Assembly (NCBI GenBank): GCA_964016885.1 | Contig: OZ024744.1 | Span: 52,390,001-52,454,000 of the forward strand | Length of the DNA stretch: 64,000 nt | Direction: 5' to 3' | Origin: Eledone cirrhosa | Taxonomy: Eukaryota | In this document: one piece after another, positions 17,102 to 17,795 of the stretch | Layout of the letters: every line of letters begins with the position of its first letter | Numbering within the stretch: position 1 is the stretch's first letter | Translations under genes and position numbers: made by a program | Notes under the pieces: generated by a model | The model's database searches: none | Seen by the model: only the letters and a program-made list of their open reading frames with translations | What the model was told of the DNA's origin: nothing

Positions 17102-17795
17102 ATAAGTTGAAATAAAATGAAAACGAAATTTCATTTCTCACCCTTAGTACGGCACTTACTTAAATGTAAGTATGTGTGTATACGTACATACATATATGTA
17201 TACAGACGTACAGTAGCATGCACATATATATATATATATATATATATATATATATATATATATATATATATATATATATACATATATACATACATATATG
17301 TATGTACGTATACACACATACTTACATTTAAGTAAGTGCCGTACTAAGGGTGAGAAATGAAATTTCGTTTTCATTTTATTTCAACTTATCGTTTTCGGTA
17401 TGCCTGACCGACTTAGCTCACTCGATATGCAAATTAGGCTGCTCAGCCGTTAATTTTCATAAGGAAAGTATATACTTTCGAACGTTCAACTATCTGGCAG
17501 ATGGGTATACGGTGCTGATGATAGCTAACAAGCTTGAAACTAGTACATCGTTCCTGTGTCAGTGTTGAATAAAAAGGTGACGTGGTTGCCTTAACACCGT
17601 ACGGCATAAACATTCAGGCTGTTCAGTTTGTTTACAAACGAACAAAGCGGCGTTATAATAAGCGCCGCTAAACTGTTACGTGCATATATGTATGTGTACC
17701 TGTATGTATATATATATATATATATATATATGTGTGTGCATGCTACTGTACGTATGTATACATATATGTATGTACGTATACACACATACTTACAT
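17102..17795 (+). mobile_element. ORF-less HHR repeat element (retrozyme-like), >1 unit plus inverted 5' piece, embedded in (TA)n
   Basis: atacatatatgtatgtacgtatacacacatacttacat occurs at 17290 and 17758 (period ~470). The segment 17102-17201 is the reverse complement of 17290-17389. Homologous to 34472-35150. Confidence 0.8.
17509..17551 (+). ncRNA. Type I hammerhead ribozyme
   Basis: ACGGUG-CUGAUGA-U-AGCU(AACA)AGCU-U-GAAA-CUAG-UA^CAUCGU. Stem I has 6 bp, stem III is the palindrome ACUAGU, the cleavage triplet is GUA, and AAUAAA follows ~16 nt downstream. Confidence 0.88.

Follow-up and report, generated by a model that had tools for sequence, protein, structure and literature searches.

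A 5′-truncated inverted copy joined head-to-head to a partial tandem: a probable Hydra-clade Penelope-like element insertion in a TA microsatellite

The locus described here consists of a partial tandem, made of a repeat P, a hammerhead-bearing segment Q and a second P, that lies in a (TA)n run and is joined head-to-head to an inverted copy. It is very probably the 3′ end of a Penelope-like element (PLE) of the Hydra clade, and we are confident that it goes back to one recent insertion of such an element into the (TA)n run. The window, by which we mean the whole 64-kb stretch of DNA analysed, contains several retrotransposon fragments in eukaryotic DNA that is rich in microsatellites. The traits seen here (partial tandem, inverted copy, tail, hammerhead and (TA)n targeting) have all been published as hallmarks of PLEs; as a structure, the locus is a textbook PLE insertion pattern that has been well described. 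Specifically, partial tandems, inverted 5′-truncated copies and one-sided tails have been reported for PLEs, and insertion in (TA)n for the Hydra clade (PMC8557442, PMC3846280, PMC8969392), the origin of the tandem and inverted structures being called still undefined in PMC8557442.

Layout of the locus and origin of the inverted sequence

The features of the locus and of its relatives in the window are collected in Table 1. Because 17758-17795 repeats 17290-17327 (38/38, at a period of 468), the locus is a partial tandem of 1.08 units, which corresponds to the pseudo-LTR (pLTR)-forming tandem typical of PLEs. An inverted 5′-truncated copy adjoins on the 5′ side (17102-17224), as is also typical of these elements, and may run on through the low-complexity DNA of the TA run to about 17294. 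The direct arm opens with a perfect 14-nt palindrome at 17290-17303, that is, at its 5′ truncation point. The central TA run may be either the element's own internal run, expanded, with the two arms overlapping by about 5 nt at 17290-17294, or target DNA. No ORF was found at the locus, and none starts on the plus strand of the unit. Because the insertion sits in (TA)n, a target-site duplication could not be read there.

Table 1. Coordinates of the features at the locus and of related copies in the window
Feature	Position	Strand	Remarks
Left flank: (CA)n followed by (TA)n, presumably the target microsatellite	17064..17104	.	
Inverted 5′-truncated copy, last 123 nt (repeat P)	17102..17224	-	ends at family 3′ terminus
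One-sided tail, 62 nt	17102..17163	-	on inverted arm, missing from direct 3′ end; 62/62 with 17328-17389
Central (TA)28 and 9-nt TA-like spacer	17225..17289	.	head-to-head junction
Upstream copy of repeat P, 5′-truncated, pLTR-like	17290..17389	+	
Segment Q, between both P copies	17390..17571	+	boundaries taken from relative at 34900-34719
Type I hammerhead ribozyme motif	17495..17561	+	core 17515, cleavage predicted after 17545, palindromic stem III, arranged as in the Hydra clade
Downstream copy of repeat P	17572..17797	+	tail-less 3′ end entering (TA)n
Hairpin in repeat P	17646..17669	+	same position and loop in relative, different stem sequence
Right flank, (TA)n then (TG)n	17796..17955	.	
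Copy D, short 3′-end copy in (TA)n	33832..33899	-	
Copy C, short 3′-end copy in (TA)n	34221..34285	-	
Copy B, P-Q-P partial tandem	34471..35151	-	period of about 430, with a hammerhead core at 34774; terminates in (TA)n
Frameshifted C-terminal GIY-YIG-type endonuclease, Hydra-clade PLE (copy B)	35288..35815	-	CxCx5C, CxxC, CxH

The original prediction held that 17102-17201 mirrors 17290-17389 and that no single neighbouring stretch contains the whole 123-nt inverted piece. Sequence comparison within the locus bore out both points: the first 100 nt are the exact reverse complement of 17290-17389 (100/100), and when the piece was aligned to a single 468-nt unit (17290-17757) or to the local stretch 17225-17900, only these 100 nt were accommodated. 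Alignment to a doubled unit, the check that had been suggested, took in all 123 nt with a score of 241 and one mismatch. The remaining segment, 17202-17224, is matched in reverse complement by 17735-17757 at 22 of 23 positions (BLAST E 1e-7 in the 64-kb window), the sole mismatch being 17205/17754. Furthermore, because 17758-17795 repeats 17290-17327, this second mirror extends to 17164-17224 against 17735-17795 (60/61), and the supposed joint between the end and the start of the unit is present locally and spans 61 nt of the 123-nt piece; it is the final 62 nt alone that are absent there. That the complement of 17202-17224 occurs solely at the far end of the unit holds at the locus but not in the window, where positions 5-123 of the inverted piece align unbroken on the minus strand at 35009-34898 and 34578-34471, with 102 and 99 matches over 119 nt.

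Since the 123-nt stretch is contiguous in both P repeats of copy B, the step 17757/17758 falls inside repeat P, which is about 250 nt long, and position 17290, taken in the prediction for the start of the unit, is simply the 5′ truncation point of the direct arm. The inverted piece, compared with these relatives, is the last 123 nt of the element. A precursor in which end and start of the unit are joined had been proposed, circular or tandem in form. What survives of this is a tandem template that exceeded the length of the unit, as in PLEs generally; a real unit junction at 17757/17758 is not supported, and a circle is neither needed nor demonstrated. The view that the inverted piece was not copied from the neighbouring arm in its present form is supported. 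Its base at 17205 is that of both copy B repeats and differs from 17754. For repeat annotation, the case carries a caution, as a unit drawn from a truncated copy yields a false junction.

The position of the outer end gives the stronger argument against an artefact. Copies B and C terminate on the very base at which the inverted arm stops, copy D stopping 4 nt earlier, and the internal P copies continue past this base into Q. A fixed 3′ end is combined with 5′ truncation, as in PLEs: four of the five family termini in the window agree to within 4 nt, and the remaining one is the end without a tail. All five adjoin (TA)n, the insertion preference of the Hydra clade. The direct 3′ end stops 62 nt before the family terminus, and the insertion therefore has a one-sided tail, again a PLE trait, although at 62 nt it is longer than the published 30-40. 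The unit contains 30 TAT and 51 AT sites at which a random break could hide. That the inverted arm nevertheless stops at the 3′ terminus of the family speaks against an artefact of fold-back, as had been concluded before but without this clue, and in favor of a tandem linear RNA template.

Relatives, ribozyme and coding sequence

A search of the window with the unique core of the locus (17328-17685) gave a single long relative, at 34956-34639 of the minus strand (81%, E 8e-83), and further short matches on that strand at 34529-34481, 34272-34230 and 33879-33836. The long relative, copy B, lies about 17 kb away and is 76-81% identical to the locus. It reads, in order, endonuclease ORF fragment, about 100 nt, P (35151-34901), Q, P (34718-34474) and (TA)n, and its two P copies are identical to each other at 241 of 254 positions. 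Copies B, C and D share one orientation, have variable 5′ ends and a fixed 3′ end, and carry no inverted arm; because all three lie in one cluster, they may not represent independent events. PLE ends are clustered in (TA)n from 33800 to 34470, and a short piece on the minus strand at 33940-34100, with a hammerhead at 34032, sits between TA/TG runs. Between the ORF and P of copy B, 35170-35215 (minus) resembles stem II of the family hammerhead and is possibly a decayed second ribozyme.

The assignment of a type I hammerhead to the pLTR, as in PLEs, was made with a descriptor and by comparison of the two long copies. The descriptor returned four matches on both strands of the window, one each at the locus and in copy B among them, and none in 100 block shuffles; in its strict form it missed cores at 26426, 26433 and about 39000. 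All 19 named pairs hold in the locus and in copy B, two of them with changes on both sides. With two sequences only, the pair-shuffle control was not significant (126/500); controls slid along the sequence paired at only 32-47%. The layout fits the table of Hydra-clade hammerheads in the supplement to PMC8557442. At gathering thresholds Rfam gave no match in the 64-kb window, and the hammerhead was matched below threshold only (HH9, E 0.16). Matches to Rfam microRNAs, likewise below the gathering score, were rejected as TA-repeat noise. Folding was no better than that of shuffles (z -0.64 and -0.16), and the minimum-energy fold did not recover the hammerhead as such. The motif in Q is a predicted ribozyme. 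The hairpin in repeat P gave z values of -3.9 at 17646-17669 (plus), and -4.6 and -2.9 in the regions of 34646-34629 and 35086-35062 (minus). Its loop and its place in P are shared and its stem differs between subfamilies; it is a conserved structure and a candidate protein-binding site.

The family link of the locus to a PLE ORF rests on copy B. In the translation of that copy, CxCx5C is followed beyond a frameshift by CxxC and CxH, motifs that PMC8557442 gives as marks of the Hydra clade. CxCx5C lies in the linker, CxxC and CxH flank the E and N residues, and CCHH is absent, as in that clade. The ORF has 2520 relatives at E values up to 0.001, and CxCx5C occurs in 128 of the best 150 of these. 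A 720-aa relative with RWK, DKT and YRDD matches 35695-35288 at E 1e-20. Copy B itself lacks the N-terminal/RT part; RWK and DKT are both found in its full-length relative P0066. Within the 64-kb window, only the EN part of an RT and GIY-YIG ORF is represented, in copy B, and no RT core is attached to the family. Pfam gave no match on this ORF or on its three longest relatives tested, the 720-aa relative included, and a word-indexed search for homologues among longer proteins yielded 218 candidates, none of them significant. The ORF of copy B is perhaps chimeric with its P-Q-P. Further fragments of Hydra type, degraded PLE ORFs, lie on the minus strand at 33646-31496 and 44315-43419. A plus-strand hammerhead at 44379, on the 5′ side of the latter, possibly belongs to another inverted copy. 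In addition, a GIY-YIG fragment that passes the Pfam cut-off lies at 26917-27462 (minus); two cysteines separate its GIY from its YIG, and it presumably comes from a PLE of another clade, Naiad- or Neptune-like.

Possible mechanisms of insertion

These observations provide the basis for a model of the insertion. We propose that the RT/GIY-YIG protein of the family, in trans or in cis, would cut AT-rich DNA, and that a linear RNA of more than unit length, containing P-Q-P, would then be reverse-transcribed. One cDNA would start at the canonical 3′ terminus and stop after about 123-190 nt, giving the inverted arm; the other would start 62 nt further in and run for about 508 nt, giving the direct arm. 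The 5′-truncated ends of the cDNAs would be linked to each other by way of TA-rich sequence that is self-complementary. We see slightly less than an even chance for priming at two ends, with cDNAs made from opposite target strands. More tentatively still, we speculate that the locus records two-ended target-primed reverse transcription as a whole, in which both strands of the cut (TA)n were primed at the two starts that bound the tail and the cDNAs annealed head-to-head. The locus fits priming from both target strands, and the discriminating signature is an inverted arm extending beyond its neighbor on the 5′ side and stopping at the family terminus. AT-rich DNA was cleaved in vitro by a purified PLE protein, which extended both of its strands and began reverse transcription at the two sites bounding the tail; insertion did not depend on cleavage by the hammerhead (PMC11167929). 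If true, two-ended priming alone would explain inverted pLTRs and one-sided tails, replacing antisense self-priming; asymmetric cases such as this locus discriminate it from fold-back. In the excerpts and papers searched, a literature with few subscription papers, two-ended priming was not found as an account of inverted pLTRs in PLEs, nor, as a weak negative, was any paper linking pLTRs with twin priming or Penelope-like elements with a head-to-head arrangement.

A template of more than one unit could also have been a circle. If a 468-nt, hammerhead-cleaved circular RNA of the retrozyme kind had been read for more than one round, both the 1.08-unit direct arm and the inverted piece would result, and this would be compatible with a PLE identity. 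A hammerhead does lie within the unit, the direct repeats are identical (38/38), and circles have been proposed for PLEs (PMC4209133) and demonstrated for animal retrozymes (PMC7229834). We nonetheless regard a circular template as unlikely, since no feature at the locus requires one, copy B continues beyond P-Q-P into an ORF that would lie outside a 430-nt circle, its P repeats are 241/254 identical, and ribozyme cleavage was dispensable in vitro (PMC11167929). The locus resembles non-LTR retrozymes in its short, low-GC, non-coding unit, its type I hammerhead and its length of more than one unit (PMC7229834; 10.64898/2026.07.22.740005). It differs from them in having 1.08 units of 468 nt rather than about 300, and a relative, copy B, attached to a PLE ORF. 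Active retrozymes are defined, in the latter source, by at least two hammerheads; the locus and copy B have one each, and neither consists of a succession of two or more units that each carry a complete hammerhead. Under self-priming or fold-back, by contrast, a symmetric palindrome would have formed first, and TA slippage would later have removed 23 nt from its right arm. The self-complementary (TA)28 centre and the 14-nt palindrome with which the direct arm begins would suit such an event, three other structures in the window are near-perfect palindromes, and self-priming on an antisense template is favored for head-to-head PLE repeats in PMC3846280. An assembly artefact might likewise arise in low-complexity DNA, which is difficult to assemble. 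Yet fold-back offers no reason to stop at 17389, the family terminus, among so many TAT and AT alternatives, nor for the copy B base at 17205, and we consider this explanation, artefact included, improbable.

The arms could instead derive from two separate insertions of one young subfamily, in opposite orientations, into the same (TA)n, the central TA run then being target DNA. Short 3′-end copies, C and D, do accumulate in (TA)n beside copy B, and the inverted arm departs from the 3′ copy of P by its mismatch and TG-repeat length. However, the inverted arm is identical to the adjacent arm (100/100) and only about 80% identical to the other family members in the window, the head-to-head orientation recurs at four other loci there, and B, C and D are uniformly oriented; two insertions are therefore doubtful. 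Least of all do we expect a non-autonomous DNA transposon, either a MITE or an element like Helentron/DINE-1, the latter with subterminal inverted repeats and a 3′ hairpin. The inverted repeats, the strong hairpin at 17646-17669 and the TA flanks recall such elements, but copies B, C and D have no inverted arm, variable 5′ ends and a fixed 3′ end, the distance between the hairpin and the 3′ end of the family is about 190 nt, and a hammerhead and a PLE-type EN ORF are linked to the family. Inverted repeats at both ends of every copy and a fixed 5′ end, as expected of MITE/Helentron-type elements, were not seen in B, C and D; the pattern of 5′ truncation largely refutes this class.

The preferred reading, a PLE insertion, was compared with described elements. 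Copy B shares a C-terminal EN with CxCx5C, CxxC and CxH with Hydra-clade PLEs (Penelope-13_HM, Penelope-1_HM and Hydra-1_Obim; Craig et al. 2021, PMC8557442), which also have in common with the family a hammerhead with an extra base on either side of stem II, a palindromic stem III, and (TA)n targets. Penelope-13_HM has, like the locus, a 5′-truncated inverted copy at its 5′ end (PMC8557442). Here the distance of the hammerhead from the 3′ end is about 300-340 nt, against roughly 100-250 in most of the Hydra-clade families listed in that source, and the 62-nt tail and the absence of an ORF at the locus are further differences; the likeness is drawn from motifs and layout. Pen2a_Av, a Penelope of Adineta vaga (PMC3846280), has two direct pLTRs with an adjoining inverted pLTR, an optional tail on one pLTR and palindromes at the inverted junction, all as at the locus. 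Its inverted pLTR is shorter than the full ones and shares 15 bp with the direct one in an overlap, and a TSD of 9 bp can be seen, whereas at the locus the inverted arm extends 23 nt further 5′ than its neighbor and no TSD is readable. Similarly, the Poseidon element PAc of Anolis (PMC11167929) has an AT-rich target, two 3′ ends separated by a tail and a pLTR hammerhead. In PAc, however, the hammerhead overlaps the start of the ORF and the RT starts about 115 nt into it, while no ORF follows the hammerhead of the locus.

Other head-to-head structures and repeats in the window

With microsatellites masked, 11 inverted pairs within 2.5 kb were found in the window. Two of them are the locus, four were counted as similar, one was dropped, and four (10126/11110, 13547/14473, 14511/15924 and 61877/62108) were left out. 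The four similar structures, symmetric or nearly so, lie at 26367-26492, 38721-39099, 39393-39506 and 62725-62858; each has one arm within 3 nt of (TA)n, the distance to the next (TA)n on the other side being 69, 142, 78 and 525 nt, respectively. Hammerhead cores in the first two point outward. The palindrome at 44694-44806 was dropped, as one side only is near (TA)n and its appearance is that of a hairpin within a minus-strand element. In the survey of head-to-head loci that the original prediction had called for, here confined to the 64-kb window, an inverted arm reaching beyond its neighbor was seen in one of the five structures; the inverted arm of 62725-62858, unlike 17102-17224, is wholly contained in its neighbor. 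Five head-to-head structures in 64 kb suggest a genome rich in them, and a genome-wide count could therefore test the mechanism.

Considered with their surroundings, 26298-26493, 38718-39241 and 39392-39584 are head-to-head palindromes flanked by (TA)n runs and extended on one side by 69, 142 and 78 nt; the hammerhead core is present in the first two and decayed in the third. A second family has the same layout as the locus at 62725-63398, with a 27-nt inverted arm, a TA centre, a partial tandem of period 518 and a broken hammerhead core at 63319, its direct end being about 11 nt longer than the inverted end. Another short repeat has a hammerhead-like core and occurs twice, at 16752 and 44939 on the minus strand, each copy ending near (TA)n. 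Elsewhere in the window, a compound trinucleotide-derived satellite of about 3.4 kb occupies 22111-25491, and a fragment of a non-LTR retrotransposon forms a tandem pair at 50132-53645 (89% identical, period 1787). A dispersed, SINE-like repeat of 150-190 nt, which we take to resemble an octopus repeat, occurs in both orientations at 13543-13731, 14473-14657, 15916-16067 and 18313-18502. Degraded ORFs of LINE-type RT/endonuclease lie at 243-4464, 35957-37966 and 54592-58291, one of them adjoining the 5′ side of copy B.
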